The notes under the pieces: model-generated
The model's input: the letters and a program-made list of their open reading frames with translations, nothing else
The model's database searches: none
What the model was told of the DNA's origin: nothing
Origin: Fibrobacter sp.
GTDB lineage: Bacteria; Fibrobacterota; Fibrobacteria; Fibrobacterales; Fibrobacteraceae
DNA length: 64,000 nucleotides
Strand: one strand, 5' to 3'
NCBI RefSeq assembly: GCF_017642335.1
Contig: NZ_JAGCPF010000038.1
Part shown: positions 16,969-41,725 of the stretch, one piece after another
Layout: each line of letters starts with the position of its first letter
Numbering within the stretch: position 1 is the first letter of the stretch
Program-made: the position numbers and the translations under genes

Positions 16969-17814
16969 ATGAGCGAATGGACCACAGTCATCAAGCCGAA
17001 ATCGAGCCTGCTCTCGGTCGACTTCGGCGAAATCTGGCAGTACCGCGATCTGTACCGCATGTTCGTGAAGCGCGATATCGTCACGTGGTACAAACAAACT
17101 ATTCTCGGACCGCTGTGGTTCTTTATACAGCCCATCATGACGACCATCATGTTCATGGTCGTGTTCGGCGGCATCGCGAAAATCTCGACGGACGGTTTGC
17201 CGCAGCCGCTGTTCTACCTGGCGGGAATCTGCCTCTGGACCTATTTTTCGGAATGCCTGAACCAGACGAGCAAAACGTTCATCGAAAACGCGAACATGTT
17301 CGGCAAGGTGTATTTCCCGCGGCTCGTTGTGCCGCTTGCGACCGTCACGAGCAACCTCGTGCGGCTCAGCATCCAGATGGGGCTGTTTTTCCTGGTGTTC
17401 GCGTATTACCTGATATTCACCGACGCCCCGGTACACCCTAATTTGTACGCGCTGCTCACGCCGGTACTCGTACTGCTCATCGCCGCGCTCGCGCTCGGTT
17501 TCGGCGTGCTGTTCAGCAGCCTCACCACCAAGTACCGCGACCTGACATTCCTGCTGAGCTTCATCGTTCAACTCTGGATGTACGCGACCCCGGTGATTTA
17601 CCCGCTCAGCACCATCGAGGACCCGCGCCTCAAAATGCTCATGCAGGCTAACCCGCTCACCAGCATCATGGAAACGTTCAAGTTCGGGATGCTCGGGGTA
17701 GGGGAGTTCAGCTGGGCCGCCCTAGGCTACACCGCCGGCTTCGCCGCGTTCATCCTCGCGCTCGGCATCGTCGTGTTCAACAAGATCCAGCGCACCTTCA
17801 TGGATACGGTGTAG
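16969..17814 (+). CDS. wzm: Polysaccharide ABC transporter permease
   Basis: RDIVTWYKQTILGPLW, YRDL, ATPVIYP, NPLTSIME; ABC-2 membrane topology. Confidence 0.9.
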   Translation: MSEWTTVIKPKSSLLSVDFGEIWQYRDLYRMFVKRDIVTWYKQTILGPLWFFIQPIMTTIMFMVVFGGIAKISTDGLPQPLFYLAGICLWTYFSECLNQTSKTFIENANMFGKVYFPRLVVPLATVTSNLVRLSIQMGLFFLVFAYYLIFTDAPVHPNLYALLTPVLVLLIAALALGFGVLFSSLTTKYRDLTFLLSFIVQLWMYATPVIYPLSTIEDPRLKMLMQANPLTSIMETFKFGMLGVGEFSWAALGYTAGFAAFILALGIVVFNKIQRTFMDTV

Positions 17815-17817
17815 GCG

Positions 17818-18816
17818 CTACACCTTAAATCCGGCGTCCATCATGCACTTCTGAGCGAAGCAGTTCGCTTCGTCTTCCTTTTCGGGATAGTTGTGCGTGA
17901 TTTCGATGTTTTGCAAACAAATACCCTTCTTGCCGTGGTAGAGCACGTGCGCTAGTTCATGGAAGAATGTATACCACATCGTTTCGCGCTTCTTGAAGCG
18001 GTCGTGCAATTGGATTAGCGGGACATCCTTGTACCAGCGGTACATGCCGTAAACAGGGGCACTCTTGAAGTTCTGAACGAAAAGTACGCGGATTCCGATT
18101 TTGCGGCAGATTTCTTGCAGGCCGGTCATGCAGTCGTCGACCACCTCCGGCTCGGGAGTCCAATAGGTGATTTTCTTTTCTCGTTTCGGCAGCGTCTTGT
18201 TTGCTGCGGCAAAAGCGATAATTTCGGGGAGGGCCGCCTTCAGTCGCTTGCGGACGGGAATCTGCTCCTGTTTTTCCATCGGGTCGCGGTCCGAGAGAAT
18301 CTCGCCACGGCGAATCCACGCCGAAGTCGCATAAGGGTCCTTGACCTCGGCCAGCGAAATGCTGAATGCCACCTTCAGCCGGGCATTCTTATAGTAGCCG
18401 TCCCACGCCTTCGGAGACGCCACGGCAAAGAATTTCAGCAAGGGCATTAAAGATTTGCTTTCGTCTTTTTTTTCTTGTACCCATTCACGAACGTTAACTT
18501 CGTCAGGGAAGGACTTTTTCCAAAGGGACTGATCCGTCAGCGAGGCCTTGATTCTCTCGCGAGAGAGAAATTCGTCATAAGCAATCTGGCTGCGCAGCCA
18601 AAATGATGCCGGAATTTCCGTAACCATTTCTAAAGCAATAGCAACATCCGGCGTAATGCGGCAATTGCCCTGCAAAATATCATTTACCGCCTTGGGCGTG
18701 TAACCCATGCGCGCGGCCAAGTCGTTCGCGTCAAGGCCCATTTCTTCAAGTTTTTCGGCAAGATGCCGCCCAGGTGGCGTCACCACAGCCAATTCATCAC
18801 ATCTGTACACCTGCAT
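17818..18816 (-). CDS. higA: HigA-like antitoxin (HTH + ImmA/IrrE-type metallopeptidase domain)
   Basis: PPGRHLAE...LAARMG...ITPDVAIALE HTH; FFHELAHV HExxH. Confidence 0.8.
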   Translation of the reverse strand: MQVYRCDELAVVTPPGRHLAEKLEEMGLDANDLAARMGYTPKAVNDILQGNCRITPDVAIALEMVTEIPASFWLRSQIAYDEFLSRERIKASLTDQSLWKKSFPDEVNVREWVQEKKDESKSLMPLLKFFAVASPKAWDGYYKNARLKVAFSISLAEVKDPYATSAWIRRGEILSDRDPMEKQEQIPVRKRLKAALPEIIAFAAANKTLPKREKKITYWTPEPEVVDDCMTGLQEICRKIGIRVLFVQNFKSAPVYGMYRWYKDVPLIQLHDRFKKRETMWYTFFHELAHVLYHGKKGICLQNIEITHNYPEKEDEANCFAQKCMMDAGFKV

Positions 18817-18824
18817 AAACGCTC

Positions 18825-18885
18825 CTACTCGTGATAATCTACAATTTCTAGAATCGAAACGGTTTGATTTATAATTTTAATGCAC
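18825..18885 (-). pseudogene. 3' remnant of a HigB/RelE-like toxin
   Basis: Reads ...IKIINQTVSILEIVDYHE* directly upstream of higA, with an in-frame stop just upstream and no start. Confidence 0.6.
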
Positions 18886-19028
18886 TTATAATATATATTA
18901 AAATTTTAATAAAAGCGATTGGTATATTATTTTTTATAAAGAAATTAATAAAAAAATGATGGAGAAAACGATGGAGAAGATGATGGAGAAAAAAACTTAC
19001 ACGTTCAACTATTGATTGAGTAATTCAA

Positions 19029-20318
19029 TCATTTCTCAAGCAGTTCTCGCGAAATTTCTTCACGGTGGTTCTTGCGAACGCCACAGTCTTTCGCGATTTC
19101 GTCCCAGTTTGCAACGGCATTCTCGACCTGGTCAATGATTCCCGCATACTTGCGGATTCCGATGCGTTCCGCTACCGCCTTGAGATCGTCGCGCGTGATA
19201 TTTTCCTGTTTCATGTTCACGGACATCTGGTGGCGATTTACCCAGCGGCTCCTTGGGTTGTTGGCATAGCACAGGTCGTATGCGGGTGCCAATTTCCAGG
19301 TTCCGTATTCGTCCATCAGGAAAGATATGTTCTTGGTGTGGTCGTCATTGTTCTTTGCCAAAACGTTGAAAACCATGTAGCGGAACACTTCCTCGTCGGC
19401 CTTGGCGTCGAGCCCGAGTTTGCGCATAGCGGCAAAAGCGTCCTCGTAGGAATGGCGAGCGTCACGGTCCAGGTGAGTCAAGGCGGCAAGCGTCTGCATG
19501 TGCAGTTTGGAACCTTCGTCCGTGCGGTCGAAACGTCTGGTCATAAAGTGGCAACCGCTGCGATCTTCTAGAATGCGGCTTTCGCTCATGCGGATTCCGG
19601 CCCGTAGCGCCATCTTGTAGTACGCGTATTCGACGTTCCCTATCCCGCGAGGAATTTCGGTGATGCTGTCGTGTTCGCGGTAGCTTACGCCGTCGAACTT
19701 GAGCAGCCAATAGCCGAACCCTTTTGGCGCAGGAACCTGGCCACTGCGCACTTCGCCCGTAGATTCGTTGTACGCAATAATCGCCTTTGGCTTTGCTCCT
19801 CCGGCAGAAGTGCCGACTCGCAGGATGTCGTACAAAGTCTTGTCCTGCTGCACAAGTTTTTCCCTAAATTTTTTGCGGTCCCGAAAAACGCTCTCAGCCA
19901 GCTTTACGAGATCATCCACAAGTATTTCCGTGGATTCGTCAAGCCCTGGTGTCGGCAAGCTGGGCTCAAACTCCAAGGCGCCCATAGAACGCTTGCCGAC
20001 ATAGCACAGGCGTTCCAGCGGTGTCACCGTCTCTAGCGGACGGCCCATGGTCTGGAACCATTCCGAAATAATCTGGTCGCCGAACCTATCCGGGAGCGAA
20101 TCCGCAATGAGCCCGGGGAGCCCGCGAAAGCAGTCATTCCTGTTCTCGGCAAAAGAGAAAACGCCCTTCGTCACGGGCATCTTTATAGGGGATACCGGCA
20201 ACGGATTGCGGACAAAGGCTGGCTCGTATTCGAAATAGGCGATACCCCGCGACGCATCCCACGAAAGCGCACCGACAGGCGACCCCCACAAGTGCACGTT
20301 TACGACAAGTTCGCTCAT
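19029..20318 (-). CDS. hipA: HipA family kinase toxin
   Basis: HipA N-terminal coupling region, GTSAGGAKPK, NNDDHTKNISF, LAPAYD. Confidence 0.9.
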   Translation of the reverse strand: MSELVVNVHLWGSPVGALSWDASRGIAYFEYEPAFVRNPLPVSPIKMPVTKGVFSFAENRNDCFRGLPGLIADSLPDRFGDQIISEWFQTMGRPLETVTPLERLCYVGKRSMGALEFEPSLPTPGLDESTEILVDDLVKLAESVFRDRKKFREKLVQQDKTLYDILRVGTSAGGAKPKAIIAYNESTGEVRSGQVPAPKGFGYWLLKFDGVSYREHDSITEIPRGIGNVEYAYYKMALRAGIRMSESRILEDRSGCHFMTRRFDRTDEGSKLHMQTLAALTHLDRDARHSYEDAFAAMRKLGLDAKADEEVFRYMVFNVLAKNNDDHTKNISFLMDEYGTWKLAPAYDLCYANNPRSRWVNRHQMSVNMKQENITRDDLKAVAERIGIRKYAGIIDQVENAVANWDEIAKDCGVRKNHREEISRELLEK

Positions 20319-20620
20319 TTGGCCTTGCTCCGTTTGATACGCTGGATCTTGCCGTCCTGCAACCTGCGCAACAGAAGTGGGCTCACGGGAGGTTCCGGCA
20401 GGAACTGCTCTAGATTTTCGAGCAAGCCAAGAGAACGCAGCACGCTCAATAGGATTTGTACAGACACGGCACCCCCGCGTTCCATCTTGGCAATTGTGCC
20501 GACGCCAACACCGGCGGACTCCGCCAGTTCAGATTGCATCAAGCCCTTCCGCAGACGGTATTCCTTGAGTCTTGCTCCCATTTCCTTCAAAATAGAGGGT
20601 GTCGTCATTTCGTTCCACAT
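20315..20620 (-). CDS. HipB-like XRE/HTH antitoxin
   Basis: RLKEYRLRKGLMQSELAESAGVGVGTIAKMERG; overlaps the hipA start. Confidence 0.8.
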   Translation of the reverse strand: MWNEMTTPSILKEMGARLKEYRLRKGLMQSELAESAGVGVGTIAKMERGGAVSVQILLSVLRSLGLLENLEQFLPEPPVSPLLLRRLQDGKIQRIKRSKAK

Positions 20621-20785
20621 GATTATAAATATACACAATAATTATCACAAAAAGAATGATTATCGTAGAAAATGGCGATAAAAATGCTTTTTGTGATAGT
20701 TATAAACGTAATAAAAAGAGCCGGTGATGTATATTCACCGGCTCTGTTTGGTATGATAAATTTTCGGAGATGCTAATTGAATCAA

Positions 20786-22306
20786 TTAACCTATTTTTTC
20801 AATGTCAAAAATTAGATGAATTTTATCGTTCGCGGTTGACATGCCGAGGTATTCTCTAATGTTGCGATCTCCTCTGAAAACTGTTTTCTTGAAATCTTTT
20901 GTTAGAGATTTGCTGTATCCCCATCCGTTGTCCATGTCAAGGGAATACTTGAAAGAACTGATCTTGTCGGCTTGATTGTGTAAGTCAAAATCCCATATGT
21001 CAATTTCTACATCAATTTTGCTTTGGGCGTTGAGGATGTCGGAAAGGTAGAATACATTCCTACCGGGAATGTGAAGTGCGTTAATGCTGTTTCCTTCGTA
21101 AATGATGTCAAATTCCTTGCCCCCGTGTTTTCTTACGCTTGGTTTTGGCCAGCGATCCGCATCGACGATGGTTTTGCCATCTTGCTTTATGGTTATCGTG
21201 AGGAATAATTCGGCATCTATATTCTTTTTGCCGTCGTTGATTTTGCGTGCTTGTGCGACGTGCTTTAGGATAAATTTAATCTTAGAATATCCTTCTGCGG
21301 AACCATCTTTATTTTCTATGATAACGCCGCCTTCGAATTCCTGATAGGTAATGCCGGACGGTGATTCGCTTATGGGACCAATAGGTTTCTTGTAAACGCT
21401 ATTAACTCCGCCTTTGCTTATGTAGTATTTGTAGATGGCGTCGTCACGTGCGCTTAGTGGTTCGTCTCCGAAAACCGGAGCAGTGTCGTTTTCTGGATAA
21501 CATGCGTCGTCTTGATCATAATCTACGAGTCGCCCGTTCTCGCTTGTAGTTATTACTTCATGTCTTGAGTAGGCTACCAGATCTGGGAGGGATACAAGAT
21601 TGTCGCCGTTGGTATCTGCGGCACGATTCTGATTGCAGTTGTTTTCCCAGTCCCACCCGCAGCCTTTAGCCCAATGCTTCGTGAATCTATTGCCGGTTGA
21701 ATTACCCCATGCACTTTCGGCTGCTTGACAAGCTGTGATTACTTTGAAGTCGTCATCTCGTAGGGCGCCTTTCTTAGCTGTTGCGGCTCTTTTAGCTGTT
21801 GCTGCTCTTGCGCGAGGCTTGAATGCGGAAATGATGGATCGATTGAACGCCTTTAGATCGTCTCTGGTAGTGTTGATTTTTTTTCTGAGAGTACTTCTTG
21901 GAGTGATGCTTGCTCCAGAATGGCAGGACTCGATAAGTAGTACTTTGATTCCTGGTATTTCGTCCAAAATATCTCGCAAGTCTACAAAAGAAAGAAAGCC
22001 AGTCTCTTCGCCATTCATGTATAGCCACAGACCATCTGTTGATCCATGACAGTTGATGTAAATATAACTGTATGTTGCATCAGTTGCGTCTTTAAATGTT
22101 TCTTCGATGGTGCTTTTGAGCACGTCTAGAGTTGCGTTATGAATGCTGGTCGGCGTGATGCAGTTCCGTTTAAACATGTTCTCCATGATTCTTCTGTTCG
22201 CTGCACGACGAGTGTGCTCTCTTGTTAAAGTATCAATTCTTTCTTGATTGCTTTTTGCTGAAGAGATTTCGTCAGAAGCCGTGATGATTAAGCCTTTGTT
22301 GTTCAT
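20786..22306 (-). CDS. Caspase-like (peptidase C14 clan CD) protein with an LGFP-like repeat and C-terminal beta domain
   Basis: INCHG and IESCHSG catalytic-like motifs, VITAC; DTNGDNLVS EF-hand-like loop; QEFEGGVI LGFP-like segment. Confidence 0.6.
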   Translation of the reverse strand: MNNKGLIITASDEISSAKSNQERIDTLTREHTRRAANRRIMENMFKRNCITPTSIHNATLDVLKSTIEETFKDATDATYSYIYINCHGSTDGLWLYMNGEETGFLSFVDLRDILDEIPGIKVLLIESCHSGASITPRSTLRKKINTTRDDLKAFNRSIISAFKPRARAATAKRAATAKKGALRDDDFKVITACQAAESAWGNSTGNRFTKHWAKGCGWDWENNCNQNRAADTNGDNLVSLPDLVAYSRHEVITTSENGRLVDYDQDDACYPENDTAPVFGDEPLSARDDAIYKYYISKGGVNSVYKKPIGPISESPSGITYQEFEGGVIIENKDGSAEGYSKIKFILKHVAQARKINDGKKNIDAELFLTITIKQDGKTIVDADRWPKPSVRKHGGKEFDIIYEGNSINALHIPGRNVFYLSDILNAQSKIDVEIDIWDFDLHNQADKISSFKYSLDMDNGWGYSKSLTKDFKKTVFRGDRNIREYLGMSTANDKIHLIFDIEKIG

Positions 22307-22594
22307 AAAATGATGGATTCCTTCTTAGGTGAGTCTGTTTGTATTAAATAAATTATTTTAAATAACTTATTTTTATATTATATAACTTATTTTTATTTGT
22401 TGCGAAATGGATTGTATGAAAAAAAAATAATACAAAGAAAATGCTTTTGTTTTGAACAAAAGAGCGTATACAAACAAATTTATGTAAATTAAAAATTTTC
22501 TAAAAAACGCCAATAGTGCGCGATTTTCAATCGTAAATCAATAAACCCCTCTATTTCGAGGGGTTTAACCCAAAAAGGGTCGAATTCGCCCCCT

Positions 22595-23905
22595 TTAAAG
22601 GAACATCACAAAGTATATCGGCAAATATAAGACAGAGCCTTTTTGCAACACTTTGGAATTATTGGACAGCACAATCCCTTTTGCGTTTTCGTTCGCTTTG
22701 AGCAAGTTGTCGATAGCGCTATGAATCCTATAATCCCTGCCGGACTTTACCTCTATCGGGACAACGGATAACGAATCAAAGTCGTCTATCAAGAAGTCCA
22801 CTTCGCCCTTATGCCGATTATCGTAATAAAAAAGCTTCTTCCCGTGTGCCTTCAGTTCCTGCGCAACGACGGTTTCATAAACCGCCCCAAGATTAATGCT
22901 GGGAACATCGTCCAGCACCGCAGAAATATTCGGGCCATACAACACGCCAGTAAGGATGCCGACGTCATTAAGATACAGTTTCAACAGGTTCTTGGTCGAA
23001 GACTCGATCAAGGGAAACTTGACATCCGTTATTGCAGAAACTTCAAGCGCAACACCAGCATTCGTCAAGTACTCAAATTCATCCTGATAACTTGACAATC
23101 TGGCCGATTTCTTGGATTCTATTTTATTTGCGACAATCCTCTTTTTCTTGTTTTCCATCATCGATGGAATCATGTCGTAAATTTTCCGGATTTTTAATTT
23201 GTTCCGAGCATCATGCTTACTGGCGTCGATGGCGTAGAATTCCTTTATGTCGCTCTGTATCTTGCGGACCTTGACGATGTTTGATTCCTGGATGAACATG
23301 TTCACGGCATCGGGCATGCCGCCAACCAGCAGGTACTTTTTGAACATGTCCATCATCTTGGCATGCATCGATTCGTCAAGTCCCATTTTGCCGAGATACC
23401 TGTTCCTGATTCCCTGAATGGAGAATTCGTTGAATCCGTTCGCCCAAAGGAACTCCTCGAAATCCAGCGGATACATATGTTCCGTCTCAATGCTGCCAAT
23501 TGGAATGGAAGACGTCTTTGCCAGGGCGATGCCCAAACGCGAACTGCTGGCAATATACGTAAAGCGGTCGCCCTGTTTCAAGAATTTGAGCAAAGTCAGC
23601 AAGTGGGGATATTCCTGGATTTCATCAAGAAAGACCAGCGTGTCCTTGGCGTTCCCCATCTTGTTGCCTGCAAACATGCTCAAGCGCAAGTAGAAATCGT
23701 CAACATTCTTGACATCGGCAAACAAATGACTGCCGATCGAATCTTCCCAAAGGTTAACCTCGATATAGTTCTTGAAATGCTTTTGCCCCATATGGCGGAT
23801 AATGAAAGACTTGCCAATCTGCCGTGCGCCATCAATTAGCAGAATCTTGTTGGATCCCGCCGTGAAATACTCTTCCAAACGTTTTTGAATTTTTCGGTAT
23901 AGCAT
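22595..23905 (-). CDS. AAA_14 / DUF4143 ATP-binding protein
   Basis: GARQIGKS Walker A, FLDEIQ Walker B, EVDF...IEVKSG. Confidence 0.85.
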   Translation of the reverse strand: MLYRKIQKRLEEYFTAGSNKILLIDGARQIGKSFIIRHMGQKHFKNYIEVNLWEDSIGSHLFADVKNVDDFYLRLSMFAGNKMGNAKDTLVFLDEIQEYPHLLTLLKFLKQGDRFTYIASSSRLGIALAKTSSIPIGSIETEHMYPLDFEEFLWANGFNEFSIQGIRNRYLGKMGLDESMHAKMMDMFKKYLLVGGMPDAVNMFIQESNIVKVRKIQSDIKEFYAIDASKHDARNKLKIRKIYDMIPSMMENKKKRIVANKIESKKSARLSSYQDEFEYLTNAGVALEVSAITDVKFPLIESSTKNLLKLYLNDVGILTGVLYGPNISAVLDDVPSINLGAVYETVVAQELKAHGKKLFYYDNRHKGEVDFLIDDFDSLSVVPIEVKSGRDYRIHSAIDNLLKANENAKGIVLSNNSKVLQKGSVLYLPIYFVMFL

Positions 23906-24002
23906 TTTTCAATCACTTTTTATGCTAAAAATATACACTTTTCAATCACTTTTAGCAATACTTTTTGACACTTTTCAATAAAAGACTAAGTTCTTTATTT
24001 TG

Positions 24003-24102
24003 CGAAAAAACGCCAATAGTGCGCGATATTTCAAAAAAAATGAGCGAATTCTCAAGGAATTTCACCTTTTTACACCGCGACTTTGAACACGATGCCGCCC
24101 GT
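24003..24102. repeat. Copy 2 of the brnA-3'/promoter repeat (other copies at 22505-22530 and 25432-25590)
   Basis: ccaatagtgcgc...ggaatttcacctttttacaccgcgactttgaacacgatgccgcccgt is near-identical to 25432-25524. Confidence 0.9.
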
Positions 24103-24127
24103 AATGTCAATTTTAAGGGACTTCAAT

Positions 24128-25315
24128 CTACAGTTCGTTCATTGCCACTAGATTTCTAAACTGAATGTGTCGAACCGTGCTGGTGGAATAGTCGATTTCG
24201 TCGTTTGATATGACAATCTTTTGGATGGAATTGTCGAACCTGTTGAACGCCCCAAACTCCCGTTCATAAGCCTTCTCCTCGGCAACGGAATACGCCGCTT
24301 GGATATAAAAGGTTTTGCCGCCCTTGTTGGCTATAAAATCAATTTCGTGTTTGCCATCGTTAAAAACTTGAACATCGTACCCCATATAAACAAGCTCATT
24401 ATAGACAACATTCTCAAAATTATGAGTCAAGTCAAAGCGGTTATTGTATGCACGAATCGAGTTGAACGAAACATCCTCATTGTACATCTTGTAGTAGTAA
24501 CTCAACTCCCGTTTTGCCTTGGTAGAAAACAGCCTAACCGGTTGAACAACATAGGCTTCTTCCAAGTAACCGAGATACTTTATGATAGTAGTGACAGTGC
24601 ACTTAAACGAGTTCGTTTTCATATAGTCAGCAACAGAGCGTGCCGAAAAAATACGGGCGTTCGACACTAGCACATAATTTACCAACCTAGTAAAAATTTC
24701 AGTCCGTCTGATCTTGTAGCGGGAAATGATATCGTTGAGGACTATGGTATCGTTAATTTCGTTCAAATATTTCTTTTGGCTTTCTATGTCGCCATACTCA
24801 ACACGTTTCGGAAAACCTCCCCATATGATGTAATCCGTCAGGTTCATCGACCTGCCCAACTGCGTCGCATATTCAAGCAGTTCCCTATACACAAAAGGGC
24901 GAACCCTGAACGACACATACCGTCCGGACAGTTCCTTGGTAAATTCTCGCGACAAAAGTTTGGAATTGGACCCGCTGATGAATACGGAACAGTTGCGAAC
25001 GCGGAGTGTGCGACAAGCAGCGGCCCAATCTTCTACGCGCTGAACCTCATCTAGAAAAACATAGCACAGTTGGTCCTTGCCCGGCCGGTTTTTGTCAACG
25101 TACTCCAAGAGTTTCATTGCATTAGGCACAGTCGCCAACACTGCAGCATCTTCGAAATCCAATGAGACAACATTGCCTGAACGTTCCTTGATCTCTTTGT
25201 GTATATCAGCCAAAATGACCGACTTGCCACAGCGTCGGATTCCAGTAATCACCTTTATCAGGTCGGAATCGTAAAAAGCCCTTATGGGAGCAATGTAGCG
25301 TTCTCTGAATATCAT
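24128..25315 (-). CDS. AAA_14 / DUF4143 ATP-binding protein
   Basis: GIRRCGKS, FLDEVQ, SGSNSKLL, EIDFIA; start placed at MIFRERY. Confidence 0.85.
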   Translation of the reverse strand: MIFRERYIAPIRAFYDSDLIKVITGIRRCGKSVILADIHKEIKERSGNVVSLDFEDAAVLATVPNAMKLLEYVDKNRPGKDQLCYVFLDEVQRVEDWAAACRTLRVRNCSVFISGSNSKLLSREFTKELSGRYVSFRVRPFVYRELLEYATQLGRSMNLTDYIIWGGFPKRVEYGDIESQKKYLNEINDTIVLNDIISRYKIRRTEIFTRLVNYVLVSNARIFSARSVADYMKTNSFKCTVTTIIKYLGYLEEAYVVQPVRLFSTKAKRELSYYYKMYNEDVSFNSIRAYNNRFDLTHNFENVVYNELVYMGYDVQVFNDGKHEIDFIANKGGKTFYIQAAYSVAEEKAYEREFGAFNRFDNSIQKIVISNDEIDYSTSTVRHIQFRNLVAMNEL

Positions 25316-25333
25316 AAACACCTCGCTGCTCAA

Positions 25334-25416: not shown

Positions 25417-25491
25417 TAAATTTGTGAAAAATCACCAATAGTGCGCAATATTTCTAAAAAAATGGGCGATTTTTCAAGGAATTTCACCTTT

Positions 25492-25587
25492 TTACACCGC
25501 GACTTTGAACACGATGCCGCCCGTCACGTAACGGTGGATGATAGAATTGATGAGCGTCTGGTAAGGCATGCCCGCGGCCTTCGCCAT
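25492..25587 (-). pseudogene. C-terminal remnant of a BrnA/CopG-like antitoxin
   Basis: MAKAAGMPYQTLINSIIHRYVTGGIVFKVAV*; in-frame stop 3 codons upstream. Confidence 0.65.
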
Positions 25588-25641
25588 TTTCAGTTAGTAA
25601 GGATTCCTTACATACCTTTTTCCGCAATTTGCTCCATATGG

Positions 25642-25672: not shown

Positions 25673-25781
25673 TTTTCAAAAATATCAGCAAGCGATATTG
25701 CCTAAGACTTGTGAGTTCTGGGGCGCTCAGCCACGACCAGAACGAGCCGGATTCCTAAAATAGGGATAAAGGGACATCCCA

Positions 25782-33113: not shown

Positions 33114-33147
33114 TTGAAAAAGTTATGATCGCAATCAAGTTCGAGAA

Positions 33148-34164
33148 ATGGTTCAAGAAAAAGACAAAAATCCCATCGTTTTCTTTTCATGGCAATCAGA
33201 CTTAGATGCAAAAACCAATCGCAACATCATTGGTGATTGTATAAAAGATATTTGCAAAAAGAATAACCTTTTATATGACGAGGCTACGAAAGACCGGTGC
33301 GGCAGTCCCGACATCGCGAGATCTATAGAAGAGAAAATTCGATTGGCAGACATATTTGTTGCAGATGTAACTGTGATAAATGCCGAAAGTCAATCGAAAC
33401 CAACCCCAAATCCCAATGTTCTTTTTGAACTGGGAATTGCCCAAGCAATACTCGGCTGGGAAAGAATAATCCTTATTGTTAACACTGCCTATGTTGCAAT
33501 TGAATCTCTGCCATTTGACATAGACAAACACAGAGCTATTCCTTATTCGCTTGCCCCACAATGCGCTCAAAAATTAAGCAACAAACAAAGAATGAATCTT
33601 TTATACGATACCCTTAAAAAGGGAATTCTTTCAATAATAAAAGCAAACCCTCTAAAGGAAATTTTAAAAAGAAATCGCACAAAACAAATACAATACAACA
33701 AAGACTATGAAAAACTTGAGAATCTTTTAGACTATTTTTTCTTTGATTCTATACAGGAATTTTGCGAGAACGGCCCCAAAGATGTCGATAAATACATGCT
33801 TCTTTTTCAAAAGCATCTCGCCATAGAAGTAAAGAATCCATCATTCATTTTTTATGACAAAGAACTCGAAGCATTAATAAAGGACATTCATAGTACACTA
33901 AACAAGAGCATCCCTTCAAGCGCTCCATATCGTCCCAATTCTGACCGAACAAGCTTGACATGGGAAATCCCTTTTGACGTTCCCCCGTCAAAAGACGAAG
34001 AAAAATTATTTCATTCAGCAGTATCCGCTTGCAGAAAATTAGAAAAATTAATAAGACGCCTCGCTCACATAGTTCATGAAAGATATCCAGGAATTGATCT
34101 TGATGTTAAAAGTGGAATGAACAGCACAGATTTTTTTAAAGAAGTTTTTTCGCAGTCCGGATGA
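33148..34164 (+). CDS. TIR-like / nucleoside-deoxyribosyltransferase-like nucleotide-binding protein
   Basis: VFFSWQSD, ADIFVADVT, NPNVLFELGIA, LPFDI. Confidence 0.65.
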   Translation: MVQEKDKNPIVFFSWQSDLDAKTNRNIIGDCIKDICKKNNLLYDEATKDRCGSPDIARSIEEKIRLADIFVADVTVINAESQSKPTPNPNVLFELGIAQAILGWERIILIVNTAYVAIESLPFDIDKHRAIPYSLAPQCAQKLSNKQRMNLLYDTLKKGILSIIKANPLKEILKRNRTKQIQYNKDYEKLENLLDYFFFDSIQEFCENGPKDVDKYMLLFQKHLAIEVKNPSFIFYDKELEALIKDIHSTLNKSIPSSAPYRPNSDRTSLTWEIPFDVPPSKDEEKLFHSAVSACRKLEKLIRRLAHIVHERYPGIDLDVKSGMNSTDFFKEVFSQSG

Positions 34165-34304
34165 TTCACAACATTATTCCTAAGGATTGCTGGGGGTTCA
34201 GTTCTGATGAAATTTTACAATCTCTATTAGAGAAAAATCCCGATTATCGGAAACTAAACGACGAAGATACTCTGTTTGAATTGATTGACGAAAAGAGTGT
34301 TTAA
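34161..34304 (+). CDS. Small 47-aa ORF (MIHNIIPKDCWGFSS...), below the ORF-track cutoff
   Basis: ATGA overlap with the upstream stop; followed by a terminator. Confidence 0.4.
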   Translation: MIHNIIPKDCWGFSSDEILQSLLEKNPDYRKLNDEDTLFELIDEKSV

Positions 34305-34316
34305 CTCAAATAAGGA

Positions 34317-34341
34317 AATCGGCAGGCTTGGCCTGCCGATT
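34317..34341. terminator. Intrinsic terminator between convergent genes
   Basis: aatcggcagg / cctgccgatt stem, T run downstream. Confidence 0.7.
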
Positions 34342-34614: not shown

Positions 34615-35045
34615 AATGAAACTCCTGTATTTAAATTTAACTTACCATCACCACGCGGCAATGGATAAAAAAACGAGGCAAACATTTACAAGCCTCATTT
34701 CTTCTGATCCTTCAATCGATAAGGAACGTTTAATTATTACATCGGAACGTCGATTCGTTCCAGTCATTATAGTTGGTTCAATTTGGGCCTTTTTTCTACC
34801 GATGCCTTAAGGCGTTTGCCGACAGAGCCCGAAAACCAATTTTACTACAAATATACAAAAAAAAGTCAAATGCCAATACAATCTTTTAAGAACCCAATTA
34901 TTCTTTCCGTCTTTAATCTATATTACAGCAATATGCAGAACGGCAAGATAAAGAAAGTTATCCTATTGCTTCTTCAACTGGTTATGGGGAAGCTTACATG
35001 TCCAATTTACACAAGAGACCGTTTTCTGGATGGATTTCCCAATTT

Positions 35046-35936
35046 CTATTTCACCATTGCAAGTACCTGTTCCTTGGTGACGAAGTTCAGTACAGAAAAT
35101 GCAGTCATCTGGTTTCCGAGATCTTTGAGCGATGCGCCCACATGATAAATCACGTCGTCGACGATGACAAAACGGTCATGGACCTCACGCATGTTTTCTA
35201 GGCGGACTGTCGGAAATTCCCGGTTCAAGCGCGCTTCTTCCTCCCTCATTGTGCGAGTGATTCTGGCGGAATAGATTGTTGCGTCCACACCCTGGGCGCG
35301 TTTTGCCATGAGCGAAAGGACCATGTCGTTGGCATACGGATCGATGATGAAGAGTTCCTTTTTTGCCGAACGCACCAGCTGCACGGCGAATTCGTAGCCG
35401 CTCCAGTGCGCATGGGCGGGCAAGAGGCCCTCGCTTGGTGGCAGGTTCGCCTTCACGAAGAAATCCACCTGCCTTTCTAGGTTGATTATGCGGGAATCAA
35501 GGTATTCCAGCCTGTTTTCGTGGGAAACCAGGCGCTGGTTGACGCTGCAACCCCGGAGCAGATGCTCTTTCAGGACTTGGTTCGCCCAGCGGCGAAATTG
35601 TATTCCCCGACAAGTGTTGACGCGAAACCCTACAGAGATAATCATGTCGAGATTATATAGAGTAACCATTCTTTTTACAGATCTTTGGCCCTCCTTTTGA
35701 ACTAGTTCCAAAATGGAACTAGTTGCCTTTTCTTCTAATTCCTGGGTTTCAATGATACTCCTTATATGTTTGGTTATCGCCTGTCGTTGAACATCGAACA
35801 GCTCCGCCATCTGTGCCTGGGTGAGCCAGACGGTCTCGTTCTCTACCCGGACCTCGATGTGGAATTCCCCGCCCTCCGGCTGGTACACGATGATCTCGTT
35901 CTTGTCGGCGACCGGCAACGTCTCTTTTTCGCTCAT
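35046..35936 (-). CDS. RhuM-like DNA-binding protein with a C-terminal PLD-like domain
   Basis: ETVWLTQAQMAELF, YNLDMIISVGFRV, FRRWA; IIDPY and HDRFVIVD. Confidence 0.8.
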   Translation of the reverse strand: MSEKETLPVADKNEIIVYQPEGGEFHIEVRVENETVWLTQAQMAELFDVQRQAITKHIRSIIETQELEEKATSSILELVQKEGQRSVKRMVTLYNLDMIISVGFRVNTCRGIQFRRWANQVLKEHLLRGCSVNQRLVSHENRLEYLDSRIINLERQVDFFVKANLPPSEGLLPAHAHWSGYEFAVQLVRSAKKELFIIDPYANDMVLSLMAKRAQGVDATIYSARITRTMREEEARLNREFPTVRLENMREVHDRFVIVDDVIYHVGASLKDLGNQMTAFSVLNFVTKEQVLAMVK

Positions 35937-36199
35937 TTACGGCTCCTTTGACGCCTTGGGCGTCCGTGACGACGGCTCAGAAATACAAACCATGTAAACA
36001 TGGTTGTGCTTCATTCGCCTTGCACGATTTTCCTGCAAATGGGCTTCTGGTTGCGGGTCTTAATCGGTTCTTGCAAATATGTAATGCACATCCGTGCATT
36101 ATCAAATATAATTCCGCGGGGTGGCGATGTCAATAGGTAGGCGGATTTTTTCTCAATTGTTTTCCAGGTTTTCCCCTAATATCTATATTACTTGATAGT

Positions 36200-36395
36200 A
36201 TGTCGTCTGCTATTGAGTTCGAGAACATCAGCAAGCAGTACCGCCTGGGGCTAGTGAGCACCGGGACGCTCAGCCACGACCTGAACAGGTTCTGGCAGAC
36301 CAAGGTGCTGCGCCGCGAGGACCCCTACCTCAAGGTGGGCGAAGTGATGCCGTTGAGATTATCGATCGCGAACGCTACCTAGACACCCCAGTGAA
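36200..36395 (+). pseudogene. wzt stub C: codons 1-49 fused to a remnant of the EIVD..CERYLDTPVK segment
   Basis: 36200-36345 matches the wzt 5' end; 36354-36395 (gagattatcgatc gcgaacgctacctagacaccccagtgaa) matches about 40906-40956. Confidence 0.9.
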
Positions 36396-36407
36396 GAAGA
36401 TTTCACT

Positions 36408-37538
36408 ATGCTAAAGAAAATCATTCCGACACTAGCATCTAGAGAATCAAAGGAGCTTCTTTGCATTGATGCTCTTAAGGGCATAGGTGCGTTCATCATT
36501 GCATTCTTTTGGCATTATCAGCATTTTACGCCTATCCAAGAGTTTCCACTTTCCAGCATTTTTGAAATTAGCTGCACCCATGGCTATTTAATGGTAGAAT
36601 TATTCTTTATGCTTTCTGGTTTCGGGATGGCTTTGGGGTATCAGAAAAAAATTCAAGATAAAGAAATTAAGTTTTTTCCTTATATAAAAAAGAGATTTTG
36701 TAGGTTGTACCCGCCTTTTCTGGTAGCTTTGTTTGCCACGGGATTTCTAGAGTGCGTCCATATAACGCAAACGGGAACAACCTTCATTTATGGTAACTTC
36801 GACTTATATCATTTCTTATTAAATCTACTATTGCTTCAAAACGGATTGATTGCAACGGAGTGGTCGTTTAACTCACCATCATGGTGCATCTGCATATGTA
36901 TGTTATGCTATATTCTTTTTTACATAGTGGTATATAAGGGCGCTAGCGAACGTTCTCTGTTCTATAAATGTATTATCGTTTTGTTCTTTGCCGAATATCT
37001 CTTTTTCGGAATGGCAAAGCCCATCTTTAACGCTCAAATCGCTCGCGGGATTTCATGCTTTTCCATCGGAGTTATGCTTTCGTATGCATGGCGATACAAG
37101 GACCGCTTCAACTATCAATATCTTGGAAAAATTTTGCTATTGCTTCTCATTGGAGGGTATATTGCTATTCGGTATAACCCCTACATTACAGGGAATATGC
37201 AGCAACTATTCATATTAGGAATTGGCCCTGTAATTATCCTAACATCATTGTTTCATAAACACTTAAACATCATTTTCCAAAACAAAATTTTTGTTTTTTT
37301 AGGCTCAATATCCTTGAATATTTATTTGTGGCATTACCCTGTTCAATGTGCCATAAAAGACTTAGACCTGCTTTTCTCGCTAAGTCTTGATTTTTCATCT
37401 ATTTTGACTTGGTCGATATATGTAATGGCGACTCTTGCGGTTGCAGTTTTTGATAGGTATTTCGCTTCAAAGTGCTACAACAAGGTTTTTTCAACTTTTA
37501 TTGCGCAATTTAAGGCCAATAGCGCTCCAAACCACTAA
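36408..37538 (+). CDS. Acyltransferase family 3
   Basis: IDALKG...WHY, VELFFMLSGFG, KRFCRLYP, PSWCI, IYLWHYP. Confidence 0.85.
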   Translation: MLKKIIPTLASRESKELLCIDALKGIGAFIIAFFWHYQHFTPIQEFPLSSIFEISCTHGYLMVELFFMLSGFGMALGYQKKIQDKEIKFFPYIKKRFCRLYPPFLVALFATGFLECVHITQTGTTFIYGNFDLYHFLLNLLLLQNGLIATEWSFNSPSWCICICMLCYILFYIVVYKGASERSLFYKCIIVLFFAEYLFFGMAKPIFNAQIARGISCFSIGVMLSYAWRYKDRFNYQYLGKILLLLLIGGYIAIRYNPYITGNMQQLFILGIGPVIILTSLFHKHLNIIFQNKIFVFLGSISLNIYLWHYPVQCAIKDLDLLFSLSLDFSSILTWSIYVMATLAVAVFDRYFASKCYNKVFSTFIAQFKANSAPNH

Positions 37539-37559: not shown

Positions 37560-37806
37560 ATGACCGCGATCGAGTTTGAAAACATCAGCAAGCAGTACCG
37601 CCTGGGGCTAGTGAGCACCGGGACGCTCAGCCACGACCTGAACAGGTTCTGGCAGACCAAGGTACTGCGCCGCGAGGACACCTACCTCAAGGTGGGCGAG
37701 GTGAACGACCGCGCGCACAAGGGCGACAGCGAATACGTGTGGGCCCTGAAGGACATCAACTTCATGGTGGAACAGGGCGACGTCGTGGGCTTCATCGGCA
37801 GAACAT
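37560..37806 (+). pseudogene. wzt stub D: 5' ~82 codons, truncated within Walker A
   Basis: Matches 40460-40705 with a few missense changes; ORF reads on to TGA 37847, overlapping the next ATG. Confidence 0.95.
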
Positions 37807-37843: not shown

Positions 37844-39124
37844 ATGAATAACAAAAACGTCATTCACATTCAGGATTTATCCAACCCCAAAGCCATAAGT
37901 GATTTTGTAAGTGAATATCTAGATTTAAAAAAAAGGCGAGTAAAAGAATATATAGTAGATTTTCAAAAATGCGACGCGATTTACCCTAATTCAATCGTTC
38001 CTATAATGGCATATATAGAGGCTTTAAAGGCTGATGGAGAAAACTTTACTATTTGGCCTCCTCAAGACCCCAAAACAGCCGGCATGATAAGCGTTCGCGA
38101 CATCGAGAATCTTGATTTTGTTGATTCTCCCCTATCAAAAATTTGGAAATTTGATTCAAATCATATTCATATTTTTGTAAACAAACTGATGGATTGTATC
38201 AGCAGATCCACTGTTTGTTCCGAGGGGGTATTAGGAACTATTGAATGGTCAATAAATGAAGTAATGGACAATGTACCCGAGCATGCTGACGTTGAATATG
38301 GTTACGTCATGGTTCAATTGCATAAATCGAACAATAGAGTTGCACTAGCTATCGCCGATACAGGTATAGGCTTTAAAGAGTCGTTTAAAAAATCAAAACA
38401 ATATCGGCCGATAACCGATGTTGATGCAATTACATTAGCGCTTAAAAAAGGGGTGACCTCTTCTGACGAACGAGGCCGCGGAAACGGATTATATGGTTTG
38501 TACAACCTGGTTACATCCACCGAAAATGGGCGTTTGCGCATTTGCTCAGCATCAGGTATGGTAAATATTGAGAAAAATAAAAATCAGAAACCCCTAAACT
38601 CATTACACCCCTTAAAAACGCATGGCGATCATACAATAACAACAATTGATTTTCAACTACCTCTAGATGAAAGAATAAATATAACAGAAGCATTAGAAGG
38701 TTACACGCCACCCCTTGTCACAGCAAGAATTGAACAATACGAAAAAGACAATGACTATGTTTTCTCTTTAAAAGACATGTCTAATGGCTTTGCAACAAGA
38801 TCTGAGGGCAAACGAGTTAGAACAAAAATAGAGAATATGTCTATCGAATTAAACAGAGAAAAAATTATTTTAGATTTTTCCGATATATCTATGATTTCAT
38901 CTTCTTTTGCTGATGAAGTAATTGGAAAATTAATGGAAAAGTATGGTTATGAAAATTTCAACAAATTTTTCCTCATTTCAAATGTTGAAAGAAATGTAGA
39001 ATCTCTTCTCAATTATGCGATTACAAACAGAACAATAAACGAGGACACATATAATACAAAGGATAAAGGTGTAAAGGCCTTTATTAGGAAAATTCTAGTA
39101 CACCTGCTAGAGAAGTTGAATTAG
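37844..39124 (+). CDS. STAS-like + GHKL/HATPase + DUF4325-like protein
   Basis: INEVMDNVPEH, IADTGIG, GRGNGL GHKL boxes; LDFSDISMISSSFADEVIGKL C-terminal STAS-like domain. Confidence 0.7.
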   Translation: MNNKNVIHIQDLSNPKAISDFVSEYLDLKKRRVKEYIVDFQKCDAIYPNSIVPIMAYIEALKADGENFTIWPPQDPKTAGMISVRDIENLDFVDSPLSKIWKFDSNHIHIFVNKLMDCISRSTVCSEGVLGTIEWSINEVMDNVPEHADVEYGYVMVQLHKSNNRVALAIADTGIGFKESFKKSKQYRPITDVDAITLALKKGVTSSDERGRGNGLYGLYNLVTSTENGRLRICSASGMVNIEKNKNQKPLNSLHPLKTHGDHTITTIDFQLPLDERINITEALEGYTPPLVTARIEQYEKDNDYVFSLKDMSNGFATRSEGKRVRTKIENMSIELNREKIILDFSDISMISSSFADEVIGKLMEKYGYENFNKFFLISNVERNVESLLNYAITNRTINEDTYNTKDKGVKAFIRKILVHLLEKLN

Positions 39125-39317
39125 AGCAAACCATATTCACCACTAATACCAAGATCGATTTTCTTTTTTGGAAATTCATAAAATACTACGGCACAAACTG
39201 TGCACCATTTGCGGTATGTCATTCGCCTCCAAAACCATTCACGAAAGCAGGTCCAAATATGTATTATTCATTTTTCCCAACACTACATAAAAATCTTTAT
39301 TCTATATTAGTTTTAAC

Positions 39318-40430
39318 ATGATTTGCTCAGACCTAAAAAAAGGCTTACACAGTTGGCTAGACAAACTTAACCAACCGTTTCTCTTAAACCAAGGAGAAAC
39401 AGAAATCCTGACTTTGCGACAAGATGGCGACAGAGACGAGGTATTCGATGTTCTAAAGGGTATCGCCATATTCCTCGTGATTATTGGGCATTGCACATCA
39501 GGACCATTGAAAGTATTTGCTCATACATTTCACATACCCTTATTCTTTTTTATTGCCGGATATTTTCTTAAAATTCGCCCTATCCGGCAAGAAATTCAAC
39601 TTAGCACAAAAAGACTCATCATTCCATATTTTTTTGTAGCTTTTTTCTCTTCTCTCATAGCGATTCTCCAAGATCTTTCACACTACACCTGGGCGGACGG
39701 AACTTATTCTCAAGAAATAATCATTAGACTGTTACTTGGCTTTAGAACGGACTTCGCGCCCAGTTGGATGAATGGAAACATCGGCATTCTTTGGTTCATT
39801 CTCGCCATGTTTTGGGCTCGGTGTATCGCAGTATTTTTAATTGGAAAAATTCACTCAATAAAGAAACTTTGCGTTATTTTTTTCATTCTAGCAATTCTAG
39901 GGATTGTTTTAGGAAAATTCGTTTTTGTTCCTTACTGCATTCCACATGGTCTCACCGCTTCGGCCCTAGTTTATGTTGGTTTTCTCATAAGAAAATTTAG
40001 GATACTAAACTCAGAATATATTAACAAAATCCTTCCTTTTCTGCTTATACTTTGGCTATGCAGTTTGAACCATGGCGGCTTGGGAATGGCTAGCGGGAAT
40101 TATCCTTTGGGCTTTATTTTTAGTTCATTAGGAGCTCTAGGAGCCTTTTTAACATTGTATATTGTCGTAAAAACAATCTACAGAAAAGATTCCACATTTT
40201 GGAGATTTATCTATTTCGGAGGACGTTTTAGTCTAATTATCTACTGTGTCCACGCTATCGAATTTGACAATTTCAACTGGAAAGCCTTCGCTCTGTTGCA
40301 TCATGTCCCCTTAAATCATTTTGACCTGTTCCAATTGGCAGCACATTTTACCATTACCCTTGTATTCACATCTATTATTTTAAAGATTAAGCCAATTAAA
40401 GAACATATTTTCCAAATAAGAAATGTTTAA
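39318..40430 (+). CDS. Acyltransferase family 3 (paralog of 48578-49576)
   Basis: FDVLKGIAIFLVIIGHC, PLFFFIAG, GILWFI. Confidence 0.85.
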   Translation: MICSDLKKGLHSWLDKLNQPFLLNQGETEILTLRQDGDRDEVFDVLKGIAIFLVIIGHCTSGPLKVFAHTFHIPLFFFIAGYFLKIRPIRQEIQLSTKRLIIPYFFVAFFSSLIAILQDLSHYTWADGTYSQEIIIRLLLGFRTDFAPSWMNGNIGILWFILAMFWARCIAVFLIGKIHSIKKLCVIFFILAILGIVLGKFVFVPYCIPHGLTASALVYVGFLIRKFRILNSEYINKILPFLLILWLCSLNHGGLGMASGNYPLGFIFSSLGALGAFLTLYIVVKTIYRKDSTFWRFIYFGGRFSLIIYCVHAIEFDNFNWKAFALLHHVPLNHFDLFQLAAHFTITLVFTSIILKIKPIKEHIFQIRNV

Positions 40431-40459
40431 AAATCTGCAAAAAATTATTTTTTTACAAA

Positions 40460-41725
40460 ATGATAGCCATCGAGTTCGAGAACATCAGCAAGCAGTACCG
40501 ACTGGGGCTAGTGAGCACCGGGACGCTCAGCCACGACCTGAACAGGTTCTGGCAGACTAAGGTGCTGCGCCGCGAGGACCCCTACCTCAAGGTGGGCGAA
40601 GTCAACGACCGCGCGCACAAGGGCGCAAGCGAGTACGTGTGGGCCCTCAAGGACATCAACTTCAAGGTGGAACAGGGCGACGTCGTGGGAATCATCGGGC
40701 GTAACGGCGCCGGCAAGAGCACCCTCCTCAAGCTGCTGAGCCGCGTGACCGCTCCCACCACCGGCACCATCCGCGCACGGGGCCGCATCGCGAGCCTCCT
40801 CGAAGTGGGCACCGGGTTCCACCCGGAGATGACCGGGCGCGAGAACATCTACATGAACGGCGCCATCATGGGCATGAGCCGCGCGGAGATTACCCGCAAG
40901 CTCGATGAAATCGTGGACTTCAGCGGCTGCGAACGCTACCTGGACACCCCCGTGAAACGCTACAGCAGCGGCATGACCGTACGCCTCGGATTCGCCATCG
41001 CAGCACACTTGGAACCCGAAATCCTCGTGGTGGACGAAGTGCTGGCCGTGGGCGACGCCGAATTCCAAAAGAAGGCCATCGGCAAGATGCAGGACGTAAG
41101 CCGCGGCGAAGGCAGAACCGTGCTGTTCGTGAGCCATAATATGGGCGCGGTGAAGAATTTGTGTAAGCGCGGAATTGTGCTGAATCAGGGACAAGTGACG
41201 TTTGATGGAGCGGCAGACAATGCCGTAAATTTTTATACAGGAAGTTATCGCTTATCAGAAGAAGACGAACTAATCAATCGGGTAACAAAAACGGCAAAAG
41301 GCATTTCAATAAAGCATTTCTCTTTTAACGGCTCAACATCTAGTCAAACAACTATCACAAATGGACAAAAATCCATTGAGGTCTGCATTGAGGGTTATAC
41401 TAGCAGCCCTCTTTCTAAAGTTGACATCAGATTGACTATAAAAAATTCTTTGGGAACACCACTAGCAACTCTTGCAGAAGGACACTATAAAAATAGCACT
41501 CAGGATTTTGATATCGGAGATTTCTCGATAAAGAAAGAATTCATTTTGCCCAAATATCTTTCACAAGGGCTTTGCATTGTCGACATCTATTTGCACAAGC
41601 CAAACGTCATGTACTATATGGAAGCCCCCAATTGTGCAACAATAGACATTAACGGAAATAGCGAACGATTCGGACAGGCCCTTTTATTAAACAGGGATGG
41701 CTTTTTCGGATTTGAAACGAAATAA
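40460..41725 (+). CDS. wzt: Polysaccharide ABC transporter ATP-binding protein with Wzt_C domain (intact copy)
   Basis: GRNGAGKST, YSSGM, VVDEVLAVGD, VSHN, plus a C-terminal extension. Confidence 0.95.
   Translation: MIAIEFENISKQYRLGLVSTGTLSHDLNRFWQTKVLRREDPYLKVGEVNDRAHKGASEYVWALKDINFKVEQGDVVGIIGRNGAGKSTLLKLLSRVTAPTTGTIRARGRIASLLEVGTGFHPEMTGRENIYMNGAIMGMSRAEITRKLDEIVDFSGCERYLDTPVKRYSSGMTVRLGFAIAAHLEPEILVVDEVLAVGDAEFQKKAIGKMQDVSRGEGRTVLFVSHNMGAVKNLCKRGIVLNQGQVTFDGAADNAVNFYTGSYRLSEEDELINRVTKTAKGISIKHFSFNGSTSSQTTITNGQKSIEVCIEGYTSSPLSKVDIRLTIKNSLGTPLATLAEGHYKNSTQDFDIGDFSIKKEFILPKYLSQGLCIVDIYLHKPNVMYYMEAPNCATIDINGNSERFGQALLLNRDGFFGFETK

Follow-up and report, generated by a model that had tools for sequence, protein, structure and literature searches.

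The window analysed here, a stretch of 64,000 nucleotides of Fibrobacter sp. (positions 2184-66183 of contig C30 of genome G000, which has 3.77 Mb in 73 contigs and 52% G+C), carries a glycan export locus in which the permease gene wzm and the ATPase gene wzt are separated by 22.6 kb. The interval is filled by anti-phage and sugar-modifying genes, split by remnants of the front end of wzt, which we call stubs. Judging from their substitution pattern, the stubs are separate functional alleles of wzt and not decayed duplicates, and the wzm-wzt interval is a variable slot throughout the genus. We think it probable that each stub is the scar of a recombination event, homologous in the conserved 5' part of wzt and illegitimate at the other end, which often accompanied a switch of the glycan cluster, and that the copies then acted as portable homology. 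Growth of the array is tied to swapping of the glycan cluster downstream, a connection absent from a preliminary description of this DNA.

The left conserved border of the array is wzm (16969-17814, + strand), which encodes an ABC-2 permease (PF01061, E 7.6e-22) whose protein is 94-99.6% identical in other species of the genus. Intact wzt (40460-41725, + strand; PF00005, E 3e-22) has a part coding for the conserved nucleotide-binding domain, from nt 1 to about 750, and a variable C-terminal part in which the Wzt_C match stays below the cut-off (17.5 bits vs 30.4). The coordinates agree with the separation given in the preliminary description. Glycosyltransferase and methyltransferase genes lie downstream of wzt. 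With a permease, an ATPase bearing a C-terminal extension and glycosyltransferases nearby, this is an ABC-transporter glycan export locus. In a contig scan that yielded relatives outside the genus only, the best were from Bacteroidales (82-86% amino acid identity). This level holds for the nucleotide-binding part (40460-41179) against homologues in Bacteroidales metagenome-assembled genomes (MAGs; Paludibacter, Prevotellaceae), and it is unusually high if the host belongs to a different phylum.

Copies of wzt were detected by blastn of the intact gene against the window and by a repeat search. Stubs B, C and D, all on the + strand upstream of intact wzt, match it far above chance (E 1e-62 to 0). 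The preliminary description had counted four truncated copies, A to D; B, C and D stand, A does not, and two others, E and G, had been overlooked. Stub B (30758-31251, preceded by leader B at 30670-30757) corresponds to wzt nt 1-491, and its alignable part (30767-31251, nt 7-491) is 95.3% identical over 485 nt. Leader C and stub C together span 36100-36395. The stub covers nt 1-143 at 36200-36345 (97.1% identity for 36209-36345, nt 7-143) and resumes at 36351-36395 with nt 453-497, that is, after an internal deletion. Stub D (37560-37803) corresponds to nt 1-243, and is 92.5% identical over 239 nt (37560-37798, nt 1-239). Stub E (25675-25743, + strand; nt 16-84) is old or divergent and cut at both ends, being 75% identical to the wzt of its own genome (E 3e-7) and 80-82% to that of species G014; its left edge is the exact point where homology with strain L019 breaks. 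Finally, stub G (33125-33147, + strand) consists of the first 23 nt of wzt, ATGATCGCAATCAAGTTCGAGAA, of which 20 are identical to the intact start, and abuts the ATG of a TIR-like gene. At the same junction strain L019 carries ATGACCGCGATCGAGTTTGAAAA, which matches the start of stub D at 23/23 positions.

Unit A (27798-28030, + strand) was rejected as a true stub. It is composed of a leader with a terminator hairpin and a promoter-like TATAAT, only 11 nt of the wzt start (27895-27905, ATGACCGCCAT) and a dispersed repeat of about 125 nt (27906-28030), whose family counts 25 or more members in the genome. Leaders A and B have 69 nt in common (27818-27886 and 30682-30750, 97% identical). The complete leader-11 nt-repeat unit directly precedes intact wzt in two other species, G020 and G006, and the leader A unit precedes a TIR-like gene in strain L019 and a sulfatase gene in strain L020. 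A related landmark at 34905-34999 (+ strand) joins a leader-like promoter piece to the 5' remnant of a sulfatase cargo gene. This segment matches the start of the sulfatase gene that is intact in L020, and about 75 nt of that gene are retained in the window. The sequence TAATCTATATT is present 11 times in the genome, including 3 times in the array.

The copies differ from intact wzt and from each other by 5-8%, a value equal to the divergence of wzt between species. These differences are concentrated at third codon positions: 23/27 in stub B, where only 3 of 163 codons are changed, and 15/21 in stub D. Stubs in five other species behave likewise when compared with wzt (11/12, 23/25, 17/21, 16/23 and 9/9). 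Such an excess indicates that the copies diverged in separate lineages while they were working genes exposed to purifying selection. In a tree of the 5' copies, which had been proposed as a check, the four window copies were monophyletic in 0/200 bootstrap trees and C paired with the wzt of G014. The tree is weakly resolved (2/21 branches supported), so it only shows that the window copies do not cluster. The earlier view of alleles from different sources, as opposed to one recent tandem duplication, is thus upheld.

The stubs range from 11 to 497 nt, so a fixed core site with a single stub length does not describe them. Cut points in the window and in other genomes fall at wzt nt 23, 44, 63, 73, 84, 143, 239-252, 369, 453, 491 and 497, and no shared motif was found among the junction sequences compared, which argues against a site-specific enzyme. 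Across species, DNA conservation of wzt continues to nt ~700-776, so the stub ends are true truncations. No cut point lies beyond nt ~500, though homology reaches ~750, as would be expected if each event needed at least ~250 nt of downstream homology as an anchor. Stubs B and C end 6 nt apart (31251, nt 491, and 36395, nt 497; ...CERYLDTP), and a crossover with strain L108 falls just before nt 519. These three points may mark a recombination hot spot around nt 491-518, though they do not establish one. As for a mirror series of wzm 3' stubs, the window has none, and the sole find elsewhere is a 23-nt wzm 3' end inside the array of G019 (L003, 12224-12246).

We compared the locus across 101 species genomes of the genus, including that of the window. 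The wzt 5' end was matched in 48/101, and nine (G000, G003, G010, G014, G019, G020, G059, G067 and G089) have at least one partial wzt copy that precedes intact wzt by a few kb on the same strand. The shortest wzm-wzt gap, in G008, measures 385 nt, and the longest exceed 17 kb. Between species, the 5' DNA of wzt is 5-10 points more similar than the adjacent wzm, which fits frequent exchange. Several window modules are found elsewhere next to an intact wzt. The segment 34999-36347, containing a RhuM-family gene, a hairpin repeat, leader C and the beginning of stub C, has a counterpart of 90% identity in G014, which there runs on into an intact wzt without a gap. In G010 the Toprim-like/ATPase module, 87% identical, is placed between a stub (nt 16-92) and a leader followed by intact wzt. 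G067 carries a diverged HEC-01 pair after a stub cut at nt 252, abutting intact wzt, and G089 an acyltransferase 47% identical to acyltransferase 2 of the window, just upstream of wzt. According to these arrangements, the arriving unit would be cargo, sometimes a leader, and its own wzt 5' end; landing in the resident wzt, it leaves the resident 5' end behind, and a stub heads the next cargo only as a consequence. The preliminary description had regarded each stub as the start of an imported stub-plus-cargo unit. The adjacency it noted is real, but the same cargo adjoins intact wzt elsewhere, and its landing pad persists in our reading as the wzt 5' end serving as recombination substrate, with the arriving unit redefined.

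Conspecific contigs, which come from metagenome assemblies retrieved by exact-protein look-ups and are 97-100% identical in the common parts, show the same variability among strains. The variation in stub number and cargo that the preliminary description had predicted was therefore found both among species and within one. At least five versions of the array were seen, having from one to five or more stubs and differing cargo. In the commonest (18 contigs), an acyltransferase comes after a lone stub of 46 nt; in another, leader A with its repeat is fused to the 23-nt stub G and the TIR-like gene, and 5 kb present in the window are absent; a third has the sulfatase gene behind leader A. The versions break at edges of leaders, stubs or small repeats (25676, 27798/27838, 28030, 30670-30777, 33125), and past the right end of the repeat, at 28030, three strains continue in three different ways. 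Besides stubs, module edges are also marked by the leader, by a promoter piece with a brnA-like remnant (brnA') and by small hairpin repeats.

Two near-identical strains change glycan cluster at breakpoints within a wzt 5' copy, and a third differs from the window in the wzt copies. L026 matches the window at 98% identity between 33125 and nt 73 of stub C and then continues in unrelated DNA, with another acyltransferase, a wzt of 426 aa and a different glycan cluster; homology returns at 50349, within a GT4 gene, which sets the right border of the swapped block. L108 agrees with the window at every site for 12.3 kb, as far as wzt nt 518, is about 10% divergent to nt ~756 and then has a different C-terminal domain and cluster, so that the crossover took place at or before nt 518. 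L110 differs by 15 single-nucleotide polymorphisms (SNPs) in 9.2 kb, all inside wzt copies: the 11 in intact wzt (nt 99-447) each agree with stub B, and the 4 in stub D (nt 105-144) each agree with other copies. This pattern fits gene conversion among the wzt copies, with the qualification that metagenome assemblies can mix strains inside conserved repeats.

We therefore favour the following sequence of events. Along with cargo, incoming DNA from another strain or species would bring its own wzt 5' end, sometimes also a leader and frequently the remainder of wzt with a different glycan cluster. It would pair homologously in or downstream of the wzt 5' region, while the incoming end without a homologue would join illegitimately, or via a short dispersed repeat, in the resident wzt 5' end or leader. 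The resident 5' end would then stay as a stub and a complete wzt would be re-formed downstream. Repeated rounds could stack modules. Later, leaders, stubs and small repeats would provide portable homology for RecA-type recombination, resulting in conversion, deletion or addition of modules and reassortment among strains. The one-sided illegitimate joining and the order of these events are what we infer from the anatomy and breakpoints described above.

Several observations weigh against this reading. The exact donor of the STAS-acyltransferase or HEC-01-TIR modules was not found in the 101 genomes, which gave distant or tiny matches only, so no junction can be compared with both parents for microhomology. 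Cargo start codons lie 0-90 nt from six junctions, and random illegitimate ends would need selection to give that. Hairpin repeats stand at several junctions (G003, G020, G010, G019 and window position 35944), and some of the ends taken as illegitimate may be repeat-mediated or due to another activity. The junction of stub G with the TIR-like gene is common to two diverged alleles. Stub decay is not monotonic with distance from wzt and so does not bear out a strict stacking with the newest module next to wzt. A large share of the strain evidence is drawn from metagenome contigs, in which strains can be mixed within conserved repeats. The reading also presumes a route of DNA entry into this organism, be it natural competence or another. 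Taken with the 6-nt distance between the ends of B and C, the hairpins and the start codons near junctions leave room for some further activity.

Other mechanisms could be proposed for the same scars. In a Campbell-type scheme, a wzt 5' fragment with cargo and leader would excise as a circle between direct copies and re-integrate by single crossover, leaving one stub per event. The direct repeats, 137-485 nt long and 92-97% identical, would suffice as substrates, strains do differ by whole repeat-bounded units, and gene conversion among the copies would mean that they recombine. Moreover, the junction between a stub of 44 nt and an acyltransferase is identical in the conspecific strain L018 and in species G089, so stub and cargo can move jointly. 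However, an ordinary double-crossover transfer of a pre-made array segment explains shared junctions equally well, an illegitimate event is still required for every first junction, the left junction of the ATPase-pair cargo in G010 is not the one seen in the window, and the stub ceiling of ~500 nt is left unexplained. We consider this scheme unlikely as the general mechanism, while re-insertion of circles may contribute to spread. Much harder to reconcile with the data is an origin by tandem duplication of the wzt 5' end followed by decay and insertions, or else a chimeric assembly in which variants of different strains were linked via the conserved 5' region of wzt. The genome is in 73 contigs and probably a MAG, conserved repeats are classic sites of assembly joins, and one 100%-identical contig may be the genome's own source. 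Nevertheless, the stub/cargo junction sequences must be present in real reads, and the array was recovered in separate metagenome assemblies, one from another sample with a different downstream cluster (L108/L016) and one from another assembler (L110). Stubs also occur in genomes of other species with 10-20 contigs and 99-100% completeness, and the concentration of differences at third codon positions rules out the decay of a local duplicate. Such an origin appears to us very improbable.

Site-specific capture by an unlinked recombinase, or by hairpin repeats resembling miniature inverted-repeat transposable elements (MITEs), would make the wzt 5' end a true integron- or transposon-like system. 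The hairpin repeats, of 65-125 nt, belong to a family of at least 25-36 genome copies with the form TTTGACGCCnnnGGCGTC...GGCTCGG-variable stem-GCnCTCGCC; examples are found in the window (27906-28030 and 35944-36028), in L001 (14253-14328 and 14443-14506) and in L018 (20388-20453). They stand at several stub/cargo junctions, and in other genomes copies are inserted in wzt stubs at nt 20, 92 and 203, always at TT^C. The three continuations at 28030 and the neighbouring ends of B and C, with the L108 crossover close by, also speak for such a system. On the other hand, the hairpins are dispersed genome-wide and missing from most window junctions, for which we rejected them as an attC-like general explanation; the cuts extend over nt 23-497 with no common motif; and the stubs are long homologous tracts, not short core sites. 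No Rfam family was matched in the window at the gathering threshold, hairpin repeats included, and no attC-like ends were found. As the preliminary description had it, no integrase or transposase was detected: PF00589 tyrosine recombinases are absent from contig C30, the four matches of the genome being on other contigs, and no recombinase or transposase family appeared among the Pfam-scanned open reading frames (ORFs) of 16.9-41.7 kb and 50.7-56.9 kb. Four other species have a gene with a weak tyrosine recombinase score close to the distal end of the glycan cluster, 12-18 kb downstream of wzt (G003:C14:222821-223198, G006:C4:54906-55283, G098:C1:547028-547495 and G010:C1:138996-139460); these genes count in favour of this alternative, and no counterpart was found in the window. 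On balance we regard site-specific capture as quite improbable, more so than re-insertion of circles.

The genes between the stubs were typed with Pfam and PADLOC, and the cargo calls of the preliminary description were borne out. Stub B is followed by HEC-01A, an ATPase, and HEC-01B, a DUF4276 protein (31264-33113, + strand; PADLOC E 4e-162 and 1.5e-67). Next, past stub G, come the TIR-like gene (PF10137, E 2e-5; PADLOC TIR effector, E 9e-7), a 47-aa ORF and a bidirectional terminator at 34317-34341, together at 33148-34341 on the + strand. The RhuM-family gene with its 85-nt dispersed hairpin repeat (35046-36028, the repeat at 35944-36028; - strand; PF13310, nhmmer 68 bits) precedes leader C. 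Acyltransferase 1, of the Acyl_transf_3 family, follows stub C (36408-37538, + strand; PF01757, E 9.5e-26), and a STAS-like (DUF4325)/HATPase gene with acyltransferase 2 follows stub D (37844-40430, + strand; PF14213, PF13581, PF01757). The two acyltransferases are unrelated to each other. The cargo after B, G, C and D is co-oriented with its stub and starts 0-58 nt past it, and co-oriented cargo beginning within 0-60 nt of a stub is probably transcribed from the leader promoter. A sigma-70 consensus scan did not single out the leader, with its 19-nt spacer, though this consensus may not be that of the host. About half of all modules are antisense.

It is tempting to go one step further and to see in leader and wzt 5' end a selected, recombinase-free platform for capture and expression, in which linked DNA would be taken up by host recombination, set behind a ready promoter and reshuffled through repeats. 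We offer this idea tentatively; it has less in its favour than the recombinational origin of the stubs, and somewhat more than the alternatives weighed above.

The left part of the array is occupied by modules on the - strand. Next to wzm are a helix-turn-helix/M78 (ImmA-like) gene and a toxin-antitoxin pair of HipA and a HipB-like protein (17818-20638; Pfam). In other species the M78 gene is found in three different slots; HipBA directly follows wzm in G010, with 97% identity. Among conspecific strains the presence of these genes varies. Then come a 506-aa caspase/CHAT-like gene, with weak CHAT/C13 hits, and two PDC-S01 genes of the AAA_14-DUF4143 type (20786-25333; PADLOC E 1e-170 and 3e-112). 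Each of these three genes is preceded by a nested copy of one promoter piece (22496-22527, 23999-24107 and 25421-25529). The last copy belongs to the second repeated landmark of the locus, the 3' remnant of a brnA-like antitoxin gene with its promoter piece (25421-25635; reading ...AKAAGMPYQTLINSIIHRYV... to the stop), whose 99-nt core (25493-25591) is found again, with 91-99% identity, in four other species (L001, L005, L006 and L009). The two PDC-S01 genes are gained and lost between these nested landmarks, and conspecific strains differ by exactly one repeat-to-repeat unit. To the right of stub E lie a HEPN (RiboL-PSP) gene and an AbiLi-like ABC ATPase gene (25782-27673; PF18735, E 3.7e-13; PF13304; PADLOC AbiLi, E 1.5e-82), and past unit A the Toprim-like module, with a 231-aa Toprim-like gene, an AbiLi/AriA-like ATPase gene and a 112-aa ORF (28064-30563; Pfam/PADLOC). 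With two PDC-S01 genes, two AbiLi-like genes, HEC-01, the TIR-like gene and HipBA placed between core genes, and with its varying content, the array is a defence island in a core-gene-flanked hotspot.

The surroundings of the array are variable as well. The junction between the GT2 gene and wzm, direct neighbours in the window, forms a second variable slot that accepts 1.2-4 kb of genes, including RhuM and M78 modules, in L003, L007, L008 and L012-L015; in G006 a 28-codon GT2 3' remnant (L010, 8830-8913) stands near a relocated M78 module. Further upstream, the slot at ~12000-13470 between a DegT aminotransferase gene and an ATP-grasp gene differs among conspecific strains, containing AbiEi, a pair of AbiEii and AbiEi, or nothing. 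Beside the right border of the swapped glycan block (window 49566-52049) is a third DUF4143 ATPase gene of the PDC-S01 type (50715-52049). As this gene is next to the ~50349 border, defence genes are present on both sides of the variable glycan cluster.

This locus keeps a readable record of how a defence island can grow without mobility genes: each acquisition left a piece of the anchor gene, so that allele, length and neighbours can be compared across strains. Since surface glycan type and intracellular defence share one recombination anchor, a single transfer can alter both. The resulting model can be tested, as it rests on homology at one side, on dependence on RecA and on an anchor no shorter than ~250 nt. 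If the capture platform proves true, the genus would possess a means, comparable to integrons, of assembling and exchanging genes for defence and surface modification, and if such platforms were general, conserved core-gene ends could be the long-sought growth route of integrase-less defence islands.

Some known systems share part of this anatomy. In core-gene-flanked defence hotspots and in the minimal mobile elements of Neisseria, cassettes are exchanged via flanking homology without mobility genes. As in the window, different cassettes occupy the place between the same conserved genes depending on the strain; there, however, cassettes are replaced, whereas in the window they pile up, each leaving a datable stub of the flanking gene. 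Integrase-borne islands such as SXT, at the 5' end of prfC, and e14, at icd, rebuild the end of their target gene, so that a duplicated piece of it flanks the insert and the working gene is restored. These islands have an integrase, a fixed core site and a constant stub length, but in the window there is neither an integrase nor a fixed core, and stubs go from 11 to 497 nt. The preliminary description called the array integron-like, which is adequate only as an analogy. Like an integron, it is a growing and largely co-oriented cassette array in which several cassettes may depend on an upstream promoter. In contrast to integrons it has no IntI, attI or attC, its variable junctions fall within coding sequence, and many antisense modules have their own promoters. 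No attC-type structured site was found to end every cassette, given that there is no junction motif, no Rfam match and hairpins at only some junctions, although no dedicated attC model was applied.

Closer parallels come from one-sided recombination. Experiments with bacteria capable of natural transformation have shown homology-facilitated illegitimate recombination (de Vries & Wackernagel 2002; Prudhomme et al. 2002; Meier & Wackernagel 2003; as cited in PMC5361080). It has in common with the window a one-sided anchor, an illegitimate join nearby and variable junction positions; the process is experimental there, whereas in the window it is read from the scars. For the effector-immunity arrays of V. 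cholerae's type VI secretion system (T6SS), a recombination with homology at one end and an illegitimate join at the other has been proposed (Kirchberger et al. 2017, PMC5361080), and likewise for the displacement of C-terminal parts at Rhs genes, which with their orphan modules are a precedent (Jackson et al. 2009, as cited in PMC5361080). In those arrays, as in the window, a conserved part of a resident gene is the homologous anchor and no integrase is involved, old modules are pushed aside retaining fragments of the conserved gene, and the strain-variable arrays are then moved in blocks by ordinary homologous recombination. The window is their mirror image, because the anchor is the 5' end and the array grows upstream of the intact gene. 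Moreover, the anchor is a glycan-export ATPase instead of a toxin gene and is coupled to glycan-cluster switching, and the cargo consists of anti-phage systems, toxin-antitoxin genes and acyltransferases, not of immunity genes. The co-oriented truncated copies (B, C, D, E and G, plus leader A), their nature as working-gene alleles, the variable junctions, the lack of a dedicated recombinase and the strain breakpoints in the anchor (at stub C nt 73 in L026 and no later than wzt nt 518 in L108, together with the conversion tracts of L110) are all features of a displacement array. By this comparison, the wzm-wzt array is best read as a locus of the displacement-array or hotspot kind, with the Rhs and T6SS loci as its closest precedent, which would carry the displacement idea beyond toxin-immunity loci, to the gene of a housekeeping exporter and to defence cargo.

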